Positions 13,931-64,000 of a DNA stretch of 64,000 bases are shown piece by piece; the stretch's first letter is position 1, and every line of letters starts with the position of its first letter. The notes under the pieces are model-generated. The model saw only the letters and a list, made by a program, of their open reading frames with translations. It did not search any database and was not told where the DNA came from. Origin of the DNA: Chiloscyllium plagiosum (lineage: Eukaryota); the NCBI RefSeq assembly GCF_004010195.1, contig NC_057718.1, positions 63,264,225 to 63,328,224 of the forward strand. Direction: 5' to 3'. The position numbers and the translations under genes were made by a program.

Positions 13931-15840
13931 AGCTGAAAATGTGTTGCTGGAAAAGCGCAGCAGGTCAGGCAGCATCCAGGGAACAGGAGAATCGATGCTT
14001 CAGGCATAAGCCCTTCTTCAGGAATGAGGAAAGTTTGTCCAGCAGGCCAAGATAAAAGGTAGGGAGGAGGGACTTGGGGAAGGGCCGTCGGAAATGTGAT
14101 AGGTGGAAAGAAGTCAAGGTGAGGGTGATAGGTCAGACTGGGGTGGGGGCGGAGAGGTCAGGAAGAAGATTGCAGGTTAGGAAGGCGGTGCTNNNNNNNN
14201 NNNNNNNNNNNNNNNNNNNNNNNNNNNNNNNNNNNNNNNNNNNNNNNNNNNNNNNNNNNNNNNNNNNNNNNNNNNNNNNNNNNNNNNNNNNNNNNNNNNN
14301 NNNNNNNNNNNNNNNNNNNNNNNNNNNNNNNNNNNNNNNNNNNNNNNNNNNNNNNNNNNNNNNNNNNNNNNNNNNNNNNNNNNNNNNNNNNNNNNNNNNN
14401 NNNNNNNNNNNNNNNNNNNNNNNNNNNNNNNNNNNNNNNNNNNNNNNNNNNNNNNNNNNNNNNNNNNNNNNNNNNNNNNNNNNNNNNNNNNNNNNNNNNN
14501 NNNNNNNNNNNNNNNNNNNNNNNNNNNNNNNNNNNNNNNNNNNNNNNNNNNNNNNNNNNNNNNNNNNNNNNNNNNNNNNNNNNNNNNNNNNNNNNNNNNN
14601 NNNNNNNNNNNNNNNNNNNNNNNNNNNNNNNNNNNNNNNNNNNNNNNNNNNNNNNNNNNNNNNNNNNNNNNNNNNNNNNNNNNNNNNNNNNNNNNNNNNN
14701 NNNNNNNNNNNNNNNNNNNNNNNNNNNNNNNNNNNNNNNNNNNNNNNNNNNNNNNNNNNNNNNNNNNNNNNNNNNNNNNNNNNNNNNNNNNNNNNNNNNN
14801 NNNNNNNNNNNNNNNNNNNNNNNNNNNNNNNNNNNNNNNNNNNNNNNNNNNNNNNNNNNNNNNNNNNNNNNNNNNNNNNNNNNNNNNNNNNNNNNNNNNN
14901 NNNNNNNNNNNNNNNNNNNNNNNNNNNNNNNNNNNNNNNNNNNNNNNNNNNNNNNNNNNNNNNNNNNNNNNNNNNNNNNNNNNNNNNNNNNNNNNAGAGG
15001 CAGGCATAGCTGGGGTCCATGCGGGTGCCCATGGCTACTCCTTTTGTTTGGAGAAAGTGGGAGGATTGGAAAGGAAAGTTGTTCAGGGTGAGGACCAGTT
15101 CGGTCAGTCGAAGGAGGGTGTCGGTGGAAGGGTACTGGGTGGTACGGCGGGAAAGGCAGAAGCGGAGTGCTTTGAGTCCTTCGTGATGGGGGATGGAGGT
15201 GTACAGGGACTGGGTGTCCATGGTGAAGATGAGGCGTTGGGGACCGGGGAAGCGGAAGTCCTGGAGGAGGTGGAGGGCGTGGGTGGTGTCACGAACGTAG
15301 GTGGGGATTTCTTGGACTAATGGGGACAGGACCGTGTCGAGGTATGCCGAGATGAGTTTGGTTGGGCAGGAGCAGGCTGAGACGATGGGTCGTCCGGGGC
15401 AGTCAGGTTTGTGGGTTTTGGACAGGAGGTAGAAGCGGGCGGTGCGGGGTTGTGGGACTATGAGGTTGGAGGCGGTGGATGGGAGGTCCCCTGAGGTGAT
15501 GAGGTTATGGACGGTCTGGGAGATGATGGTTTGGTGGTGGGGGGTGGGGTCATGGTCAAGGGGGCAGTAGGAGGAGGTATCTACGAGCTGGCGTTTGGCC
15601 TCAGCGGTGTAGAGGTCGGTGCGCCAAACCACTACCACGCCTCCCTTGTCTGCTGGTTTGATAGTGAGGTTGGGGTTGCAACGGAGGGAGTGGAGGGCTG
15701 CGCGTTCCGAGGGTGAGAGGTTGGAGTGGGTGAGTGGGGTGGGGTAGTTCAGGTGGCGGTTAATATCGCGGCGGCAGTTGGCTATGAAGAGGTCGAGGGC
15801 AGGTAGGAGGCCAGCACGGGGTGTCCAGGTGGATGGGATG
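13931..15840 (-). mobile_element. 5'-truncated Penelope-like retroelement: RT ORF (open 14996-15840), assembly gap, 3' terminus with a degenerate hammerhead motif
   Basis: PLE RT motifs TIKPADKGG, K.HKPDCPGRPIVS, FTMD..SLYTSIPH, KGVAMGT. The 3' end matches the fold-back family. Confidence 0.92.
14193..14995. other. Assembly gap (803 N)
   Basis: Run of N inside the PLE. Confidence 1.
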
Positions 15841-16711
15841 TGTTCTAGGGCAGTCAGATCACTCTGCATCTCTCACTATATAGATAATACATTTTTTTTA
15901 TCCCTTCTGTCAAAATGGACAATTTCACATTTTCTCCACATTATACTCCATTTTCCAGATTTTTTCCAACTCATATAACCTATCTATATCTCATTGTAGC
16001 CTCCTTAAATAATCTTCACAACTTAATCTCCTATTATTGTATCATCAGCAAATGTAACAACTATATTATCAATCCCTTCATCCAAGCCATTTGTTGCAAC
16101 TGTAAAAAATGGAGGCCTAGCACTAATACCCATGGCGCACTAGTCTCAACACCTTGCCAACCAGAAAAATACCCATTTATGTCTGCTCTCCACTTCCTGT
16201 TAGCTGGACAATATTCTATCTACATGAATGTGTTACCCCTTTACCCCCACCATGAACTTTAATTTTGTGCAATATCTTTTGCTGTTACATCTTATAATAT
16301 GCTTTCTGAAAATCAAAGTCCAGTATGTCCACTGGCTCCCTGTATCCACAACACATACTGCTTCCTCAAAGAACTCTAATAAACTGCTCCAACATAATTT
16401 CTCTTTTAGAAAATTATGTTGGCTCTCCCTGATTGTCTTGAACTTTTCTAAGTGCTCTGCTGTAAATCTTTATTAATAACTGCGAATATCTTCCCAATGA
16501 CACACATTCAGCTAAATGGCTTAAGTTCTCTACCTTCTGTCTCCCACTATTATTGAATAAAGAAGTTACACTCTCTGTTTTCTAATCTAATGGTATATTT
16601 CCCAAATCTAACCAATTTTAGAAACAAAATCAACTTATCAATTCTCTATCAACTCACTAATCACTTTTTTTAAGACTGTAGGATGAAGTTAATCAGGAAT
16701 CATAGATTTTA

Positions 16712-23208: not shown

Positions 23209-23430
23209 GGAGAAAGTGAGGTCTGCAGATGCTGGAGATCAAAGTTGAAACTTTATTGCTGGAACAGCACAGCAGGTCAGGCAGCATCCAGGGAACAGGA
23301 GATTCGACGTTTCGGGCACAGGCCCTTCTTCAGGAATTCCTGAAGAAGGGCCTGTGCCCGAAACGTCGAATCTCCTGTTCCCTGGATGCTGCCTGACCTG
23401 CTGTGCTGTTCCAGCAATAAAGTTTCAACT
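23209..23430. mobile_element. PLE fold-back insertion containing a perfect 188-bp palindrome (23243-23430)
   Basis: 94-bp arms are exact reverse complements around GAA|TTC (23334-23339). A 34-nt tail is present on one side only. Inserted in the CR1 tail. Confidence 0.95.
23336..23371 (+). ncRNA. Minimal type-I hammerhead ribozyme motif (mirror copy on the minus strand at 23302-23337)
   Basis: AUUC-CUGAAGA-A-GGGC(CUGU)GCCC-GAAA-C-GUC|GAAU. Helix I is AUUC/GAAU, helix II has 4 bp, helix III is the palindromic ACGU. Predicted cut after C23367. Activity untested. Confidence 0.75.
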
Positions 23431-23514
23431 CTATGTTCTATATGACCTCACATTTCTTCATATTATACTACATTATACTACAAATTTGGACTATCTTGTC
23501 TATGTCCTTTTGCA

Positions 23515-43114: not shown

Positions 43115-43372
43115 AGCTGAAAATGTGTTGCTGGAAAAGCGCAGCAGGTCAGGCAGCATCCAGGGAACAAGAGAATCGACGTTTCATGCATAAGCCCTTC
43201 TTCAGGAATGAGGAAAGTTTGTCCAGCAGGACAAACTTTCCTCATTCCTGACGAAGGGCTTTTGCCCGAAACGTCGATTCTCCTGTTCCCTGGATGCTGC
43301 CTGACCTGCTGCGCTTTTCCAGCAACACATTTTCAGCTCTGATCTCCAGCATCTGCAGACCTCACTTTCTCC
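43115..43372. mobile_element. PLE fold-back insertion in a FAM161A intron (110-bp arms, 4-nt loop AGCA at 43225-43228)
   Basis: Near-perfect inverted arms plus a 34-nt tail. TSD TAAGGATGTGTTAGCT at 43103-43118 and 43374-43389. Hammerhead motif at 43244-43279 (+). Confidence 0.93.
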
Positions 43373-43644
43373 TTAAGGATGTGTTAGCTTTGGCTTAATT
43401 TGGTAGCAGTCCCAGTGGTGAATGAGAAAATTGTGTTCCTGTTCCTCTCCAGAGATGTGACCAAATAAACCTAGACTTACACTCTGTGCAGTAATCCATC
43501 CCAAAGTAGTATAAAACAAACAAACAGACATAACTCCAAGAAACAAATGATTGAGAAAAACAAAGCTAATTAATCTTCTTTTGGAATATGCTAACATTTA
43601 TGCTTAGGAACATTTATGCAGCTTAAACCATTTTAGGTTCATAC

Positions 43645-47150: not shown

Positions 47151-47515
47151 AATATCTTTTGAGAACAGATGGAAGAATCTCTCTCTCATGGAGGATTGTG
47201 CAGCTTTGGACAAACAAATCATCATGATCTTATTGAATTGCAAGCAGGTTTGAGGAGCAAAGTGGCCTACTTCTGCCCCTATTCTTTTATTACTTTTCCT
47301 TGGGATGTGAATGTCATTGGCAAGGCTATTATTTGTTGGTCATTCCTAGCTGTCCTTGAGAAAGTGAAAATGAGCTGCAGTCTGAAAACATTGTAGTCTA
47401 TCTGATAATAGGTACACCAATATACCTATTATGCTGTGAAAAAGGGGGTTCCTGGGTTTTGGCTTAACGACAGTGAAGGAATGAATTATACAGTTCCGAT
47501 TCAATATGGTAAGAA

Positions 47516-47686
47516 GGAGAAAGTGAGGACCGCAGATGCTGGAGATCAGAGTCAAGAGTGTGGTACTGGAAAAGCATAGCAGGTCAGGCAGCATCCGAGG
47601 AACAGGAAAATTGACGAAACATCAATTCTCCTGCTCCTCAGATACTGCCTGACCTGCTGTGCTTTTCCAGCACTCCACTCTTGACC
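47516..47686. mobile_element. PLE fold-back insertion with the ribozyme core deleted
   Basis: Inverted arms. Flanks CCGATTCAATAYGGT at 47496-47510 and 47687-47701. Confidence 0.85.
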
Positions 47687-53419: not shown

Positions 53420-53676
53420 CTGTAACACACTGAAGATTCACAGGGATCCTCTGAAGTAGCTGCCATGCTTCTGACACAGAGTTTATCCTCATACAGTTTT
53501 GCTAGTATTGCCATAGTGTGTGCTTGTGCATTTTTTAGTTCCGTGAGCTTCTTGCAGTAATCTTTGTTGGACATGCCACATAAACTACTGGAGATTGTGG
53601 AATCCCTATCATCCATATAATGATTTTTTCTGGGTTGCACTGCTTCACAAGTATCAGGATCAGAATTATTTTCATT
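53420..53676 (-). CDS. FAM161A: FAM161A coding exon (equivalent of human exon 2), phase 0 in / phase 2 out, 257 nt
   Basis: Acceptor ttttctctgtctttag| and donor ACAG|gtagat. Encodes NENNSDPD...SNKDYCKKLTELKNAQAHTMAILAKLYEDKL..., resembling the FAM161A N-terminal motif SNEEYF.K.EELK.AH.ETMAKLEKMYQDKL. Confidence 0.88.
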
Positions 53677-54074
53677 CTAAAGACAGAGAAAATTATTGGT
53701 TATCTGTTTCCGTTATTCACAATGTGCACTCACGATTTCACTGAATTAATATATTATTAGTAATGTATTATTGGCAATTAAGTTCCCAAACAGAAATAAA
53801 TGACATATCAAGAAAAGCAAAAGTGTGGAACAAAAGGCAACAACATTAGATTAATACACCAGGAAAGACAACAGTAAACAAAATATGAAGAATCTCAAAC
53901 ATATAGTTTAAAATGCGGCAAATATAAGCTTATTACTGCAAAATGTCTATCAAAATTATTTACTAAGATCAGACTCAAATTAATTTCGAATTTCTATATA
54001 ACTTCTTCATGGCATGTTGGTGTCTTGCCAAGACCAGTATCAGTCCTCACAGTAGAGCACACCATCTGCATTCT

Positions 54075-55808
54075 AAAGACAATGAAGGGCTAAAAGGGGG
54101 ATGAAATAAACACAATAACTATTCCTCGAGTAAAAGAACTAGGGCTAAAAGCCTATAAGGCCCCTGGATATGATGGGTTGCATCCTAGGATTTTAAATAA
54201 AGTAGCTGCAGAGGTAGTGGAGGTATTGCTAGTGATCTTCCAAGAACTATTAGATTCTGGAAATGTCCCAGATGATTGGAAAACTGCCAATGTAACACAA
54301 TTACTCAAAAAGACAGAGAGAAAAAACACAGGTACCTATACACGAGATAGCTTAACATGTGCCTTTGGGAAAAATGTTAAAGTCTATTATAAAGAATGTA
54401 ATCACACAGCATTTAGAGTCAAGCAGAGTCAAAATGGCATCATGAAGAGGAAATCGTGTCTGACAAATTTAATTACAGTTCTTTGAGGAGGTAACATGCA
54501 GGTTAGATAAACGAGAACCAGTAGATGTAATATATTTGGATTTCCCAAAGGCATTCAATAAGGCACCACACATAACAGTCTTTGGTATTAGAAGTAATGC
54601 ATTAGCATTGATAGAGGGCTGGCAGATGGAGAGTTGACATAAAGAAAGCTTTTTCAGGGTGGTAACATGCAACTAGTGGAGTGCCACAGGGATCAGTGCT
54701 GGAGCCACAATTATTTACAGAATGTATTAGTGATTTGGATGATGAAATTGAATGTGCTATCAAGTTTGCAGATGACAAAAATAGAATACAGCAAAGATAA
54801 GTGAGCAGGCAAAAAAATGGCAGATAGAATATAATCCGGGATGATGGAAGGTTATGCACTTTGGCTAGAACAATAGAAGATCTGAATATTATTTAAATTG
54901 AGAAAGCTGCAACACAGTGGGATTTAGGGCTCTTGTGCATGACTCACAAAAAGCTATGATGAGCTCAGCAGGTAATAGTGAACATCAATATAATGTTAGT
55001 TTTTGTTTCAAAGAGAATGAAGTGTTAAACATGGAAGGTCTTACTAAAACAAACAAGGCACTAGTCAGACCATAACTGGCATACTGTGAACAGTTTTGGT
55101 CCCTTTATCGAAGGAAAGACATACTAGCATTGGAGCCAGTCCAGAGAAGCCTGGGTTGGAGATACTTTCAGATGAGGAGTACTTGAGTAGATTGGGCTTG
55201 TAGTCTTTGGAGTTTAGAAGAATGAGAACAGAATTTATTGAAACGAACAAGATTCTTTTATCAGGGTAGATGCAGAGACGTTGTTTCCATTGGGAGAATC
55301 TGGAATTAGAAGGCATCATCTCAGATTAAGCAGTCATCCATTTAAGACAGAGATGAGAATGATTTATTTCTCCCAGAGCGAGTGATGAATCTGTGTAATT
55401 CTTTACTGCAATGGGCTATACAGGCTTGATTGTTAAAGAATATTCAAGACTGAAGTAGGCAGATTTCTAATCATTAGGGAAATTGATGGTTATGGGGATA
55501 AGACAGGAAAGTGGAATTGAGGAGTATCAGATCAGCCATGATCTAATTGAACAGCAGGGAGAAAGTGAGGACTGCAGATGCTGGAGATCAGAGTTGAGAG
55601 TGTGGTTGCTGCAAAAGCACAGCAGGTCAGGCAGCATCCGTGCAGCAGGAGAATTAATGTTTTGGGCATAAACGTCGATTTTCCTGCTCCATGGATGCTG
55701 CCTGACCTGCTGTGCTTTTCCACCACCATGATCTCAACTCTCATTGAACGGCAGACCAGTCTTGATGGGTCAAATGGCTTATTTCTTTTCTTATGTTCCA
55801 TGGTCTTA
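54075..55808 (+). mobile_element. Decayed CR1 (RT to 3' tail)
   Basis: HPRILNKVA, VPDDWKTANV, KSCLTNL, SGVPQGSVL, KFADD. Tail TTATGTTCCATGGTCTTA. Confidence 0.85.
55558..55741. mobile_element. PLE fold-back insertion in the CR1 3' UTR
   Basis: Inverted arms. Flanks TCTAATTGAACAGCAG (55542-55557) and TCTCATTGAACGGCAG (55739-55754). Confidence 0.85.
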
Positions 55809-55819
55809 TTGTCTACTCC

Positions 55820-56590
55820 AAACTGTCTTTGAGAAGGGAGTGATGAAATCTTCTTGTATTACTGAAGCCAGTGTGATAAAGGTTCTCCTAGTGTACAGTT
55901 AGGGAGGGAGTTCCAGAGTATTAATCCAATGCTGATAAAGGAGTTGTAATATATTTTCAACTCAAGGTGGTATATGACTTGGGGTGGTGGTTTTCTAATG
56001 AATCTGCTCCCTTTATCCTGCTGAATGGTGGAGTTTACGGGTTTAGGAGCTGCTGTCAAAGAAGCTTTCATGGGCTTTTGCAATGTATCTTGTAGATGGT
56101 ACACACTGGTGTGTCAGTAGGACTCAATTTTTAAGATGGAAGACAGGATGCCAATCAAAAGTGTTGGTTTTGGTTTGGATTCTGTTCAGCTTCTTGAGTG
56201 CTTTTGGAAATGTACTCATCAGACAAACAGAGACTATTACCACAGTCTCTGACATAATCTTATCACCACACAATATATTTGGCTGACCCACTTAAGGTTC
56301 TGGTTAATGATGACTCCAAGGATGTTAATGGTGTAGTTTCAGCAATGAAAATACCATTGAATATTAAGGCAATATAGCTAGAATCTTTTTTTGGAGATAA
56401 TTATCGCTTGTTTGCCACTTAACAACATAAGGCTAGATGTTATCCCGATGTTGCTGCAATGGAGCAGTTTGGCTAGCAGTGCAGCTAGTTCAAGCACAGG
56501 TTTTTAGCAATACCAGTGAGATGCTGCTGGGCCCATGGCCTTTGCCATATTTGGTACACTAACCCAATTCTTGATCTCACTTGGACTCAT
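55820..56590 (-). mobile_element. Old degraded CR1/L2-group LINE
   Basis: Contains the reverse complement of GTGTACCATCTACAAGAT, as at ~4261. Confidence 0.5.
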
Positions 56591-56737
56591 TTAGACTCGT
56601 TTCTTTAATAGACTTTCACTGCATCCATAGACAACAACTGCTGTTTTTTGCTTACGTGTAAGCAAGGCGAGTTGCTCAATACAACCAACTATTCTGTGGC
56701 TTTGCCTTAAATTGTGACAAATTAAGTGGAGGTTTTT

Positions 56738-59700
56738 TAGAATTATAGAGTTGTACAGCACAGAAACACCTGTCGGTCCAACTCGTCCATGCCGACCAGA
56801 CATTCCAAATTAATCTAGCCCCATTTATCAGTGTTTGACCCATATCCTTCTAAACTCTTCCTACTTACAGACCCATTCAGATACCTTTTAAATGTTGAAA
56901 TTGTACCATCTCCTCTGGCAGCTCATTCCATACATGTATCACTCTCTGCGGGGAAAGGTCACCCCTTAGATCCCTTTTAAATATTTCCCCTCTCATCTTA
57001 AACATATGGCCCTGAGTTTTGGATTCGCCTAACCGGGGAAAAGACCTTGGCTAATCACTCCATCTATGCCCCTCATGATTTCATAAATCTCTGGAAGAAC
57101 TCTCCAGGGAAAATAGCCCCAGCCTCTCCCTATATCTCAAACCATCCAACCCTGACAACATCCTTGTAAATCTTTTCTGAACCCTCTCAAGTTTCACAAC
57201 ATCCTTCCGATAGCAGGGACCTCAGAATTGCACATAGTATTCCAGAAGTGGCCAAACCAATGTCATGCACAGCTGCAACAAGACTCCCAACTCCTATACT
57301 CAATGCACTGACCAATAAAGACATGCATACCGAGTGCCTTCTTTAATGCCCTATTTACCTGTGACTCTACTTTTGAGGAACTATTAACCTGCACTCCAAG
57401 ATCTCTTTGTTCGGCAATATTATAGAACATAAAACATTACAGCGCAGTACAGATCCTTCGGCCCTTGATGTTGCGCTGACCTGTGGAACCAATCTGAAGC
57501 CCACCTAACGTACATTATTGCACTCTTGTCCATATGCCTATCTAATGATCATTTAAATGCCCTTGAAGTAGGCGAGTCTACTACTGCTGCAGGCAGTGCA
57601 TTCCACGCCACTACTACTCTGAGTAAAGAAACTACTTCTGACATCTGTCCAATATCTATCACCCCTCAATGTAAAGCTACGTCCCCTCATGCTAGCCATC
57701 ACCATCTGAGGAAAAAGGCTCTCACCGTCCAACCTATCTAACCCTCTGATTATCTTGTATGTCTCAATTAGGTCGCCTCTCAACCTCTTCTCTCTAACAT
57801 AAACAGGCTTTCCTCGTAAGACCTGCCCTCCATACCAGGCAACATCCTAGTAAAACTCGCCTGAACCCTTTCCAAAGCTTCCACATCCTTCCTATAATGC
57901 GGTGAACAAAACTGTACGCAATACTCCAAATATGGCTGCACCAGAGTTTTGTACAGCTGCAGCATGGTCTCATGGTTCCGAAACTCAATCCCTCTACCAA
58001 TAAAAGCTTACACATCGTATGCCTTCTTAACAACCCTATCAACCTGGGTGGCAATTTTTCAAGGATCTATGTACCTGACACAGAGATCTCTCTGTTAGCT
58101 TTTATTGGTAGTAGTGGCTTGGAATGCACTGCCTGCAGCAGTTATAGACTCACCAACTTCAAGGGCATTTAAATGATCATTGGATAGGCATATGGACGAG
58201 AACGGAATAATGTACGTTAGGTGGGCTTCAGATTGGTTCCACAGGTCGGCGCAACATCAAGGGCCTGTAATGTTTTATGTTCTATAATATTGCCGAACAA
58301 AGAGATCTTGGAGTGCAGGTTCATAGTTCCTTGAAAGTGGAGTCACAGGTAGTTAAGACATTGAAGAAGGCACTTGGTATGCATGTCTTTATTGGTCAGT
58401 GCATTCAGTATAGGAGTTGGGAGGTCTACACTGCCAAGAATCTTACCATTAGTCCAGTATTCTGCATTCCTGGTACTCTTTCCAAAGTGAATCACCTCAT
58501 ACTTTTCTGCATTAAACTCCATTTGCCAGCTCTTAGTCCAACTCTGCAGCTTATCTTTGTCTCTCTGTAACCTACAACATCCTTCGTCACTATCCATAGC
58601 TCTACCGACTGTAGTAGTGTCATTCGCAAATTTACTAACCCATCCTTCTACTCCCTCATCCAGGTCATTTATAGAAATGACAAACAACAGTGGACCCAAA
58701 ACAGATCCTTGTGGTACCCCACTAGGAACTGAACTCCAGGATAAATATTTCCCATCAACCACAACCCTGTCATCTTTCAGCAAGCCAATTTCTGGCTAAA
58801 TCACCCTCAATCCCATGCCTCCGTATTTTGTGCAATAGCCTACCGTGGGGAACCTTATCAAACACCTTACTGAAATCCACATACACCACATCAACTACGT
58901 TTCTCTCATCCACATGTTTGGTCATCTTCTCAAAGAATTCAAGAAGGTTTGTTAGGCACATCCTACCCTTCACAAAACCGTGTTGACAATTCCTTATCAA
59001 CTTTTTCCTCTCTAGTTGATTATAAATCCTATTTCTTATAACCCTTCCCAGCACATTACCTACAACCAAAGTAAGGCTCATAGGTATATAATTTCCAGGG
59101 TTGTCTCTACTCCCCTTCTTGAACAAGGGCAACATTTGCTATCCTCCAGTCTTCTGGCACTATTCCTGAAGACAAAAATGACATAAAGATTAAAACTGAA
59201 GGCCCTGCAATCTCCTCCCTGGCTTCCCAGAGAATCTTAGGATAAATCCCAACTGGACCAGGAGACTTATCCAATTTTACATTCCCCAGGACCTTATAAT
59301 TAAGTGTATACGTCCTACCCTAATTTGCCTTTTCAAAATGCAGCACCTCACAATTATCTAAATTAAACTCCATCTGCCACTTCTTGACCTATTGGCCCAT
59401 CTGATCAAGATCCTGTTGTACTCTGATGTAGCCTTCTTTGCTGTCCATTATACCTCCAATTTTGGTGTCATCTGCAAGCTTGCTACCGCACCACCTAAGG
59501 TCACATGCAAATCACTTATACAAATGTAAAAAAGCAGTGGATTCCACACTGATCCTTGTGGCATGTTGCTAGTCACAGGCCTCCAGTCTGAAAAGTAACC
59601 CTCCACCACCACCCTCTGTCTCCTACCTTCGAGCCAATTTTGTATTCCCTGGATTCCATGTGATGTAACCTTGCTAATCATATGGAACATTGTTCAATGC

Positions 59701-60090
59701 CTTGCTGAAGTCCATAGAGACAATGTCCGCCACTCTGCCTTCATCAATCTTCTTCGTCCCTTCTTCAATAAACTAAATCAAGTTAGTGAAATACGGTTTC
59801 CCACACACAAAGCCATGTTGACTATTGCTAATCAGTCCTTGCCTTTGCAAATACATGTAAATCCTGTCCCTCAGGATTATCTCCAGTGACTTGCCCACCA
59901 CTAACATCAGGTTCACTGGTCTATGTGTTCCCTGGCTTTTCCTTACCACCTTTCTTAAATAATGGCACCCCTGGCATCCACCCTCCAGTCTTATGGCATG
60001 TCACCCGTGGCTACCGATGATACAAATATCTCACCAAAGGGCCCAACATTCACTTCTCTAGCTTCCCACAAAGTTCTGATCAGGTCCTGG
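56738..60090 (-). mobile_element. Nested CR1 cluster: an older CR1 (56738-57420, resuming ~59300-60090) with a younger CR1 (~57421-59290) inserted
   Basis: Two sets of RT motifs (GVPQGSVLGPLLFVI, DFSKVFDKVPH, LEYCVQF). Internal TTCTA tail at ~57421-57440. Confidence 0.85.
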
Positions 60091-60579
60091 GGATTATGTG
60101 CCAGTGCTCAAAAATTAGGAGTCGCCCATTTAAAGAAAACAGATGTAATTATTTCTTTCGTAGGATTGTGATTGTTTGGAATTCTCTTCCAGACAAGGTG
60201 ATAGATGTAGGTTCTTGAATATTTTAAAGGCAGTGATGGATAGATTCTTGTTATCAAGGAGTTGCAAGATTATCAGGAATAGGTAGGAATGTGGATCTGA
60301 AGTTACAATAAGATCAGCCAAGGTTAGCAGGTCAACTCCTTTACTGTAACCTGGATTCACATAATTTAGTCATGTCTTGCTGTTCTTTTCCCAAGAGAAA
60401 AAAAATAACCCCACTATTCTCCTCCTCAAACCAAATGTTTTCTCAGCCTGGGCATATTTCTTAAATGGTGAGATGTTGCAAAGTAAATGTACCAAGGACC
60501 TAGGTGTCCTTGTCAATAAGTCACAGAAGGCTAACATGCAGGTACACCAAGCTGTGATGAAGGTTAATGAAATGTTTAT

Positions 60580-61390
60580 TAAAAAAAGTGATTGCTGGAG
60601 AAACTCAGCAGGTCTGGCAGCAAATGGGGAGTCAATGCTTTGGGTCCAGTCTCTCAATGACTAGTGGTAGCTAAGAAAAGGTGGTATATATCCTGAAGAT
60701 GGTGGGGGTGGTAAGGAAGTAAGCAATAGAGGCAATAGGAGCCTTGGGGGGGAAATAAAGACATCAAGGCAGACATAAGGATGGATAATGGTGATCCAGG
60801 GAGAAAGAACAGCTGCTAATGGAAACCATAGGTAAGTGACATTGGGTTGGCAATGATGTAAGCAGCCCACGTGATGACAGGGCCTACGTTGTTAAAGGAC
60901 AAGGTTAGGGTTATTGAACTCAATATTGAGTCCTGAAGGCTGCAGGGTCCCCAAGTGGAAAGTGAGATGCTCTTCTTCCGGTTTGCACTGCGCATCACTG
61001 GATCACTGCAACAGGCACGAGACAGAAATGTTGCCCGGTGAACACGGTGGTGTGTTGAAGTGACAAGTGACTAGAAGCTTGGATTGTTTTTGTGGAAAGA
61101 ACATAGGTTTTCTGCAAAGCAGTGACCCAGTCTGCGTTTGCTCTCCCAGTGGAGAAGAAACCACATTGTGAGCAGCGATTACAATAGATTAGATTGAATG
61201 AAGTGCAGGTTAAGTGCTGCTTCACCTGAAAAGTGTGTTTAGTCCTTTGGATAGTGAGGAGGGAGGAAGGTGCATTGGGCTTGGGGAAGTGTTGAGAGTG
61301 GAGGAGGAGTGGACGAGGGTGTTCTGGCTGGAACGGGCCTGTGGAATGTTGATAAGGGAGGGGAGGGGAATATGTGCTTGGTAGTGGTGA
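60580..61390 (-). mobile_element. Old PLE 3' fragment (GIY-YIG and terminus) inserted in a CR1 remnant (~60440-61500)
   Basis: NLIYCNRCSQCG remnant and terminus GCTGGAGAAACTCAGCAGGTCTGGCAGCA. Confidence 0.7.
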
Positions 61391-61514
61391 CAGAAGTGGT
61401 GACTTATGAAATGTTAGCCTTGATCAAAATAGGATTTGAGGACGGAGATAGTGAAGTTCTGCTTCAACTGTATAGACATTTGGTTAGAAGCGCTATGTGC
61501 AGGTTTAGTCTCAG

Positions 61515-62560
61515 AGTCAAAGAGTTATACAGCATGGAAAAAGACCCTTCAGTCCAACCAGTCCATGCTGAACATAATCCCAAACTAAATTAGTCCCACC
61601 TGCCTGCTCCTGGCCCATATCCCTCCTAACCTTTCCTATTCGTGTACATGTCTAACATTGTAATTGTACCTGCATCCATCACTTCCTCAGGAAGTTCATT
61701 CTATACCCAAATCACCTTCTGTATAAAGGATTTATTTCTTTTTTTTAAATCTCTCTCCTCTCACCTTAAAAATATGCCCCCCAGTCTTGAAATCCTCATT
61801 CTAGCGAAAAGGCAACTACCATTAACTCTATCTATACCTCTTATTATTTTATAAACTTCTATCATGTCACCTTTCAACTTCCTACACTCCAATGAAAAAA
61901 GTCCCAGCCTATCCAGCTTTTCTTTATAACTCAAATCTTCCATACCTGGCAACATGTTGGTAAATCTCTTCTGAACCATCTCCAGCTTGATAATATCTTT
62001 CCTGTAACTGGGTGACCAGAACTGGACACAGTATTCCAGAAGAGGCCTCACTAATGTCCTATACAACCTCCACATGACTTTCCCAATTCCTATACTCAAA
62101 GGACTGAGCAATGAAGGCAAGCAAGCCAAATGCCTTTTTAACCACCCTGTCTATTTGTGATTCAACTTTAAAGAATTATTTACCTGCACCCCTAGGTCCC
62201 TCTATTCTACAACATTACCCAAGGCCCTACCATTAATTTTATAAGCCCTACCCTTGTGTACCAAAATGCAATACCTCATATTTATCTAGATTGAACTCCA
62301 TCTGCCATTTGTCAGCCCATTTGATCAAAATCCCTTTGTAATCTTTAAAAGCTTTTTTCACAGTCTAATATGCCACCAGTTTTGGTGTAATCCACAAACT
62401 TACAAACCAATCCTTCTATATTCTTATCCAAATCATTTATATAAATACCAAATAAAATATGGCCCAGAACCAATCCCTGTGGAGCAGGTCTTCAGTCTGA
62501 AAAGCATCCCTCCACCATTATTCCCTGTCTCCTGCCATTAAGACAATTCTGTGTCCAATT
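61515..62560 (-). mobile_element. CR1 3' fragment
   Basis: LYRTLVRPLLEYCVQFWSP...KGDMIEVYKII. Confidence 0.88.
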
Positions 62561-63084
62561 GTTCTAAGAAGGTTTGAGGAATGTTCTGTTAATTCACAAT
62601 AGAATTTTCTGAAGGGACATCATTCATTACAGAATGAATGCAACAATGTTCGAACAAATCTATCTGAATAAACGTGTGTTTGATACACTATGCAAAACAA
62701 AGAAAACTACTTTGGCAATTGTTTCTGCTTCTGTAAGAAATATTCCATTATGACAAGCAAGGTCATGTGGAATCCATTGAGAATTCCTATAGTTACACCT
62801 GGTCTCCCCATTGAGCAGAAATGTTTATGACTGACCACCAGTGCGGAAGTTAAATTCAAATCCAGACAGTCTTACTCAGAGTATTCCAGTGCACTCATTA
62901 TTTTGTTCCCCATTTCCTGAAGTTCACTTTCACTCAGATTTCATTCCTGAGTTAATGCCCCAAGTAGCTAGGGAGTGGCTGTTGATTATTGAGGAGTATG
63001 AGGAACAGGCTATTCAATTAAAACGAGATGGAAACGTGTTGCTGGAAAAGCGCAGCAGGTCAGGCAGCATCTAGGGAACAGGAG

Positions 63085-63120
63085 AATCGACGTTTCGGGC
63101 ATTAGCCCTTCTTCAGGAAT
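63085..63120 (-). ncRNA. Minimal hammerhead ribozyme motif (downstream copy)
   Basis: Identical to 63344-63379. Confidence 0.7.
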
Positions 63121-63343
63121 CTGTGCAGAGGAGATGACCTGGGGGGTGCAGTGAGAGAGGGACTCACTGAAACCTTTGTAGAGGGAGAAAGAGAGCTTCT
63201 TCAAGGAAGGCATCCTTGTAAGAGGATTCGCAGTAGGTTGAAATCTTTGAGGAGAAAGTGAGGTCTGCAGATGCTGGAGATCAGAGATGGAAATGTGTTG
63301 CTGGAAAAGCGCAGCAGGTCAGGCAGCATCTAGGGAACAGGAG

Positions 63344-63379
63344 AATCGACGTTTCGGGCATTAGCCCTTCTTCAGGAAT
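63344..63379 (-). ncRNA. Minimal hammerhead ribozyme motif (upstream copy)
   Basis: AUUC-CUGAAGA-A-GGGC(UAAU)GCCC-GAAA-C-GUC|GAUU. Confidence 0.7.
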
Positions 63380-64000
63380 TGAAACCTTTGGTCCATTCCC
63401 CTATTTTTGCCCAGCATAAATAAATGGTGCTGATTCTTGAAGATTTCAATTCTCCCATTATCCAGAGCCCTATTTAGGAATGAGTTCTAGATTTTCACTG
63501 CCTTTTTACATAAGAGAGATCACTCCCATATGGCAATCTATTATTTCCTCTTTCCCTAAGAATGTTTCTTTTTACTATATTTACATTATTGAACTTGTTC
63601 ATTAAGTGATGAATTTAGAGGGCTGTAGAGTAGACTAGCTCTTTTGGGAGATAGTACAGACACGATAAGTTGAATGGCCTCCTTCTGTACTGCAAAATTC
63701 TATGATTCAATGATGGACCGAATTGAATTGACTGAAGATGGGAAGACTATGATGTGGAGGCTGAAACTGATGCTCCACTCAGCATTTCTGATTGAAGATG
63801 GTTGGAAATCCTTCAGCTTTCACTTTTGTACTCATGTTCTAGACTACAACATCATTGAAGATAGAATTTTCATCGAGCCTTCTTTTCCTCTTAGTTGTTT
63901 AATTGTCCAACACCATTCATGACTGAGTGTGATACGACTGAGAGCTCTGATCTGCTCCATTGTTTAAAGGCTCATTTAGATCTGTCTGCAGAGTGCACTA

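Follow-up and report, generated by a model that had tools for sequence, protein, structure and literature searches.

The window, that is the whole stretch of 64,000 nucleotides from Chiloscyllium plagiosum that was analysed, carries part of FAM161A on its minus strand, with the closest protein match coming from bamboo shark (96% identity). Coding exon 2 was located at 53422-53676, and intron 1 occupies 53677-64000 and extends past the window end; by protein mapping this intron is 21,851 nt long with GT..AG borders, and exon 1 lies 11.5 kb outside the window. A sequence derived from a Penelope-like element (PLE) was found on the minus strand at 63025-63379. With exon 2 at 53422-53676 and exon 1 past the window, the element therefore lies in intron 1 in sense orientation, which agrees with the sequence-only reading that had placed it on the FAM161A sense strand and probably in intron 1. 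As a single locus it is ordinary intronic retroelement debris that probably leaves FAM161A unaffected.

The whole insertion is 355 nt long. Element positions were counted from 63379 (+1), and the predicted ribozyme cut follows +32. The locus reads +1 to +259 and then +1 to +96 of a PLE 5' end, which amounts to about 1.4 (1.37) units and produces a direct repeat of 96 nt, or two heads (63025-63120 and 63284-63379, 259 nt from start to start, with one mismatch). Minimal hammerhead 1 spans 63344-63379 (core 63375-63369, stem II 63367-63356, ACGU 63352-63349, predicted cut after 63348) and minimal hammerhead 2 spans 63085-63120 (predicted cut after 63089), so that the two predicted cuts would yield the monomer 63089-63347. 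Both minus-strand motifs read AUUC-CUGAAGA-A-GGGC(UAAU)GCCC-GAAAC-GUC. The sequence and the 96-nt repeat agree with the earlier description of two identical minus-strand hammerheads placed 259 nt apart, and the PLE-type minimal type-I form with a palindromic ACGU helix III could be read in both of them.

Hammerhead 1 is followed by the PLE leader (5' UTR, minus strand, 63214-63343), which includes both family 3'-end sites (about +95 and about +130), and then by the first 31 codons of the PLE ORF (63121-63213, minus strand, ATG at 63213 or +167), whose reverse transcriptase (RT) and GIY-YIG parts are found further downstream in longer copies. The unit had been said to lack RT coding sequence; this stands for the RT part itself, which is absent, and does not stand for the spacer as a whole, which is coding in part (leader plus first 31 ORF codons). 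The join between +259 and +1 falls at 63120-63121 on the minus strand, is unique in the genome, and has 1 nt of microhomology and no untemplated base. The remainder of the second head (63025-63084, minus strand) ends at +96 and has a private change at 63035. Position 63379 would be the 5' end of the element RNA, and the +96 end of the second head would mark an internal start of reverse transcription. An Rfam scan of 58000-64000 at E<=5 gave no hammerhead match, the motif being too small for the scan to inform, and Tandem Repeats Finder called no repeat at 63025-63379. An 11-nt string at 63380-63390, just upstream of +1 and overlapping the target duplication, recurs inside the unit at 63171-63181; it possibly reflects transient pairing during target choice, or else chance.

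The insertion is bracketed by a target-site duplication of 9 nt with one mismatch in an AT-rich site. On the plus strand it reads AATTGAAAC on the element 5' side (63377-63385), where 3 nt are common to the first bases of the element, and AATTAAAAC on the element 3' side (63016-63024). Contigs from two of two other species join 63020 directly to 63382, which is the empty site. The 361 bases that they skip (63021-63381) correspond to the element plus one 9-nt copy of the duplication, three bases of which overlap the element start. The filled site was present in both of two same-species runs, at both ends in one and at the right end in the other, the interior being known from the assembly alone. 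Because the site is empty in related species and filled in the same species, the insertion is recent and apparently species-specific. There is one target duplication around both pieces and none at the internal join, and the two pieces were likely inserted in one event.

The parent element belongs to an abundant and young PLE family. Its first 53 nt (+1 to +53) have 2,949 exact copies in the genome and the segment from +41 to +90 has 5,911, with about a dozen relatives within the 64-kb window. Longer genomic copies run from the same ORF start into RT sequence. In the related copy L149, RVT_1 was matched at E 4.7e-8 and GIY-YIG at E 3e-4, the latter below the curated cut-off, and the order is RT, a CX4CXXC linker, the GIY-YIG region, the 3' UTR and, last, a hammerhead head like that at 63025-63379. 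The pLTR hammerhead thus stands after the 3' UTR in L149 and, at 63025-63379, ahead of the start of the ORF. Judged by this domain order, the parent is an endonuclease-bearing PLE with one ORF holding RT and, at the C terminus, GIY-YIG. The linker makes it putatively Neptune-like, and Nematis or Poseidon are also possible; a CX2-5CxxC linker between RT and endonuclease is a feature of the Neptune clade according to the available part of PMC8557442. Among the 10 candidate full-length loci that were extracted, each was broken by N and none was a gap-free full-length copy, and for this reason single genomic copies were used as references.

The 31-nt sequence across the join had one match in 3.56 Gb, and a 17-nt version had two, the second outside any element context. 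The sequence-only reading had itself named a junction found once genome-wide, together with no cleavage and no circular or linear monomer, as what would make the locus a one-off tandem insertion, and the genomic part of this is what was found for the 259-nt unit. The layout, on the other hand, does recur. A whole-element search revealed 29 other loci with the two-part layout, which were selected by their likeness to 63025-63379, and a gapped-pattern search gave 25 loci joining within a 30-nt interval, with 20 different joins. Many of 45 loci picked solely for the ORF start also jump back to the head, from as far out as about +2020. Among 97 unselected heads of one contig, two had an ORF-to-+1 join and about half had native upstream sequence. 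Direct ORF-to-+1 joins were finally collected at 52 loci, including 63025-63379, with joins from about +242 to about +2020, so at least 51 others share the layout; the set consists of 106 rows minus inverted and false rows, plus two loci, and three of its members may be assembly duplicates. Since the layout recurs with scattered junctions, the loci do not form a retrozyme family. Splicing was rejected as the origin of the joins, the native -1 context not being AG and the ORF-side continuations not being GT. Some insertions appear to hold more than one jump, such as L067 with three heads and L025 with a further ORF piece upstream.

Six pairs of loci sharing a junction were compared as candidates for re-transposition. 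The pairs L160/L176, L049/L183 and L011/L022 border on N gaps and could have arisen by gap-filling, and L068/L190 and L005/L178 differ at many sites, so shared junctions were not accepted as proof of re-transposition in five of the six pairs. The sixth, L018/L028 (G000:C9:104310802 and 95248177), agrees in its junction and in a stem II G>T private to the two loci, the 3' flanks being different. Its junction was found twice only, L028 abuts Ns, and either re-transposition of a tandem unit or gap-filling could explain it.

At the 3' side, 45 of the 52 downstream heads end at +89 to +96 or at +127 to +137, which gives two family 3' ends, and +259 is not among them. Two such ends agree with the optional tail of 30-40 nt in endonuclease-bearing PLE insertions, and they parallel the two internal RT start sites demonstrated in vitro for the anole PLE (PMC11167929). 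For the 5' side, a survey anchored downstream of the cut site returned 100 matches, two of which ended in gaps, and 98 unselected copies were scored; many of these are arms of head-to-head pairs and hence not independent. Stops were at -10 to +10 in 65 copies, at +11 to +30 in 19 and at +31 to +41 in four, with a single copy (1/98) stopping exactly at the cut site (+33). Ten of the 98 run at least 107 nt into native upstream sequence, and none stop between -106 and -11. In the tandem loci, 40 of 42 upstream heads (42 of 47 being analysable) begin at +1 to +21. Ends pile up at +1 and not at +33, and therefore the template had a 5' edge at the front of the ribozyme and was uncut; a circular template would give no fixed 5' edge. 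Two solo heads, L034 and L073, are preceded by a short repeat of +1 to +8 or +9 and look as if the enzyme had restarted on the first bases of the RNA.

Variants in the heads bear on how many templates were copied. At subfamily sites the two heads of a locus disagree at 5 of 170, vs 41% between loci. Over 43 loci, 13 rare variants were common to both heads and 51 occurred in one head only; in 5,000 within-subfamily shuffles the shared rare variants averaged 0.14 with a maximum of 2, vs 10 observed in 40 loci. Since the heads share rare variants, both usually came from one RNA or from one source locus. The heads of L200 belong to two subfamilies, and therefore some events took place in trans. 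Both passes probably used one molecule; the shared variants do not distinguish this from a pair of transcripts made by a single source locus, and some of them may stem from gene conversion.

The joins carry marks of their own. After hand correction of seven rows, the last untemplated base at the 52 joins was G in 11, C in 10, A in 3 and T in none, with no extra base in 27 and one unclear case (before correction the script counted G 12, C 11, A 3 and T 0; G vs A/T, p 3e-4). C is the native -1 base and was present at -1 in 33 of the 52, and microhomology repair also fits these 33 joins and the 27 of 52 without an extra base. A G that is absent from both partners is expected from copying of a cap or from terminal addition at a physical end. 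A-runs occur on the ORF side of several joins, which suggests tailed RNA 3' ends. The native context at +1 is TCATTC, which we take to fit the initiator consensus, and the helix III ACGT (63349-63352, +28 to +31) lies where a downstream promoter element is usually placed. In Drosophila Penelope the promoter is internal and lacks a TATA box, and RGACGTGY stands at that downstream position (PMC2377424, available part). The ACGT motif may be kept partly as promoter DNA, and +1 would be a capped transcription start.

Taken together, the locus is a young insertion of a PLE 5' end flanked by a target-site duplication and likely made in one event, in which RT probably copied from +96 to +1, jumped to +259 of probably the same linear RNA, and copied to +1 again. 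The endonuclease would cut the AT-rich target, and RT would begin inside the RNA at +96 and run off the 5' end of the linear RNA at +1. It would then jump to the shortened 3' end (+259) of what was probably the same RNA, the first product presumably being displaced during recopying. The second pass would halt at +1, where 3 nt of microhomology could seal the join to the target. The join thus appears to be a template jump, and the locus is likely a fossil of tandem-copy making and not a circular-RNA element. The lack of an untemplated base at its own join counts against this explanation.

The locus had been read as a retrozyme-like or circular-RNA unit, in which an intramolecular hammerhead dimer frees a 259-nt monomer that is circularised and copied to new sites, with the FAM161A pre-mRNA being cut. 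This is very unlikely. Some retrozyme features are present, namely type-I hammerheads in tandem 259 nt apart, intact and with palindromic ACGU, and no enzyme ORF (31 codons); in the size of its unit, in its tandem layout and in having a target duplication of more than 4 nt the locus is like the non-LTR retrozymes described in the accessible part of PMC7229834, the arrangement corresponds to the two-hammerhead idea in the available text of bioRxiv 10.64898/2026.07.22.740005, and the common junction and private change of L018/L028 could be taken the same way. A recurring unit family, a canonical hammerhead (helix III stem-loop and loop 1-2 contacts) and circle-templated ends are absent. Against the reading stand the junction, which occurs once in the genome, the small number of units (1.37), the scattered sister junctions (20/25), and the copy ends, which miss the cut site (1/98 at +33). 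A circular template would lack a 5' end, whereas 40 of the 42 upstream heads begin within +1 to +21. L028 lies next to an assembly gap. Topologically a dimer could form, with an inner stem I of 5 pairs and an outer one of 3 pairs, each with a U.U. When constrained, it lay above the ensemble by 18.5 kcal/mol in a 401-nt context and by 28.9 kcal/mol in a 601-nt context, with tertiary and protein effects ignored, and the 259-nt monomer folded little better than shuffles (z -1.53). Dimeric minimal hammerheads do cleave weakly in vitro (PMC4209133, available part), which favours the idea; against it, no cleavage occurred with 8 of 9 Xenopus dimers according to the available text of the bioRxiv study, which covers one cartilaginous fish. 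The anole PLE hammerhead required protein and was dispensable for insertion, uncut RNA being the main template (PMC11167929, in its accessible part). Self-cleavage of the locus is thus predicted to be weak if any, low-level cutting being possible, and the hammerheads are likely passengers that were copied uncut.

The same single insertion could also have been made by a join in trans, between two RNAs of one source locus, or by skipping of the ORF from the 3' repeat of a full-length RNA, with the +1 edge set by cutting at ATT in a DNA intermediate; this is unlikely. A pair of transcripts from a single locus would explain the shared variants just as well, L200 joins two subfamilies, and native upstream sequence in about half of the exact heads implies that terminally redundant RNAs exist. 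ATT is the sequence that the endonuclease of the lizard PLE cuts by preference, and a dimer is predicted for the lizard protein (PMC11167929, available part), so an endonuclease cut at ATT, the same boundary, is a possible DNA-level cause of the +1 edge. Such a cut leaves the added G unexplained, and a skip does not account for the far breakpoint being always +1, the excess of untemplated G or the A-runs in the ORF part of joins. It is highly improbable that separate DNA events made the locus, whether by entry of a second piece into the ATT of an earlier 96-nt stub or by deletion of the middle of a full-length copy already inserted. PLEs are said to insert beside earlier copies (PMC6765202) and microhomology deletions of PLEs have been described (PMC3846280), both in the portions available; against this, a single target duplication surrounds the two pieces and the join lacks one, the family has no 3' end at +259, rare variants are common to the heads, and deletions would neither pin to +1 in 52 loci nor add G. 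That the locus is an artefact of short-read assembly, in which fragments of a high-copy repeat were put together, is barely credible. N gaps are frequent in the assembly where the family occurs, and some identical pairs lie beside gaps, but no N is near 63025-63379, which has a clean duplication and an empty site; comparable joins were found in contigs of independent runs from three species, and private changes separate the heads (the 51 variants in one head only).

The locus was compared with known systems, as far as the available portions of the cited papers describe them. The locus resembles insertions of endonuclease-bearing Neptune-like PLEs (PMC8557442, PMC3846280) in its hammerhead-bearing terminal repeat overlapping the leader, its 3' ends about 35 nt apart, its AT-rich target, its 9-nt duplication, the inverted arms common in sister copies, and the RT, Cys linker and GIY-YIG in the family. 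In the published PLE partial tandem, however, the upstream copy is 5'-truncated, whereas in the shark locus the upstream piece lacks its 3' part and begins at +1, and the piece downstream consists of a head only, so that RT is not carried. Green anole Poseidon PAc (PMC11167929) is similar in starting reverse transcription internally at two nearby sites that match genomic ends, starts that were demonstrated in vitro, and in having ATT at the ORF-pLTR boundary and uncut RNA as its main template. It differs in that the PAc hammerhead overlaps the start codon and RT starts inside the ORF, whereas the shark start codon falls at +167, with the ends placed inside the leader; a jump back onto the RNA is not described in the accessible text of that paper.

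Metazoan non-LTR retrozymes (PMC7229834; bioRxiv 10.64898/2026.07.22.740005, both in part) share with the locus type-I tandems 150-450 nt apart, an incomplete ORF, a long target duplication and PLE ancestry. Unlike them, the locus has a minimal and not a canonical hammerhead, 1.37 units, a single copy of the unit and linear-RNA ends. Its motifs agree with the PLE minimal type-I hammerheads of PMC4209133 in the CUGANGA and GAAA core, the extra nucleotide before helix II, the short helix I and the loopless palindromic helix III, and differ in a helix II of 4 bp and a U.U in helix I; sharks are not named in the available part of that source. R2 proteins are reported to perform template jumping after full-length cDNA (PMC11371274, available part), and end-to-end jumping of R2-type RT, also the subject of PMC8857657, likewise consists of run-off at an RNA 5' end and continuation on the 3' end of another RNA. 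Initiation in the shark PLE is internal, unlike in R2-type jumping, with the consequence that jumping onto that same RNA would copy its 5' part a second time and so make a direct repeat.

More generally, it is tentatively suggested, at somewhat less than an even chance, that PLE direct repeats arise when the enzyme makes a strong-stop-like cDNA, runs off at the cap and jumps to the 3' end of that linear RNA, which is read as if it were a circle. The cDNA would be short and strong-stop-like because reverse transcription starts within the 5' leader. If this is true, long transcripts would rebuild the tandem terminal repeat, and shortened ones would give units with two hammerheads, the raw material of a retrozyme, without a circle or a ribozyme cut, which suggests a route for the first tandem of a retrozyme. 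In the literature searched, mainly open-access, neither a cis jump nor a cap-derived G was stated for PLEs. The class of loci bears on how PLE tandems form, and its genomic ends favour run-off and jumping on linear uncut RNA over circles. Pipelines that score any two-hammerhead tandem as an active retrozyme would count such one-off products. The locus is therefore a real but ordinary insertion and not a retrozyme, and the class is a testable lead on PLE tandem formation.

Other copies of the PLE family were observed in the window. A longer one at 13931-15872 (minus strand) includes RT sequence as well as an assembly gap, and its 3' head stops at about +95, and another sense-strand head with a damaged stem II lies at 43205 (minus strand) in a later FAM161A intron. 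Head-to-head inverted stubs were found at 761-954, 23209-23432, 43115-43380, 47515-47672 and 55558-55728, with their centres at the hammerhead or just inside it. In L149 (1500-2600, minus strand), a truncated copy has at its 5' end a fourfold in-frame repeat of an ORF piece of about 135 nt.
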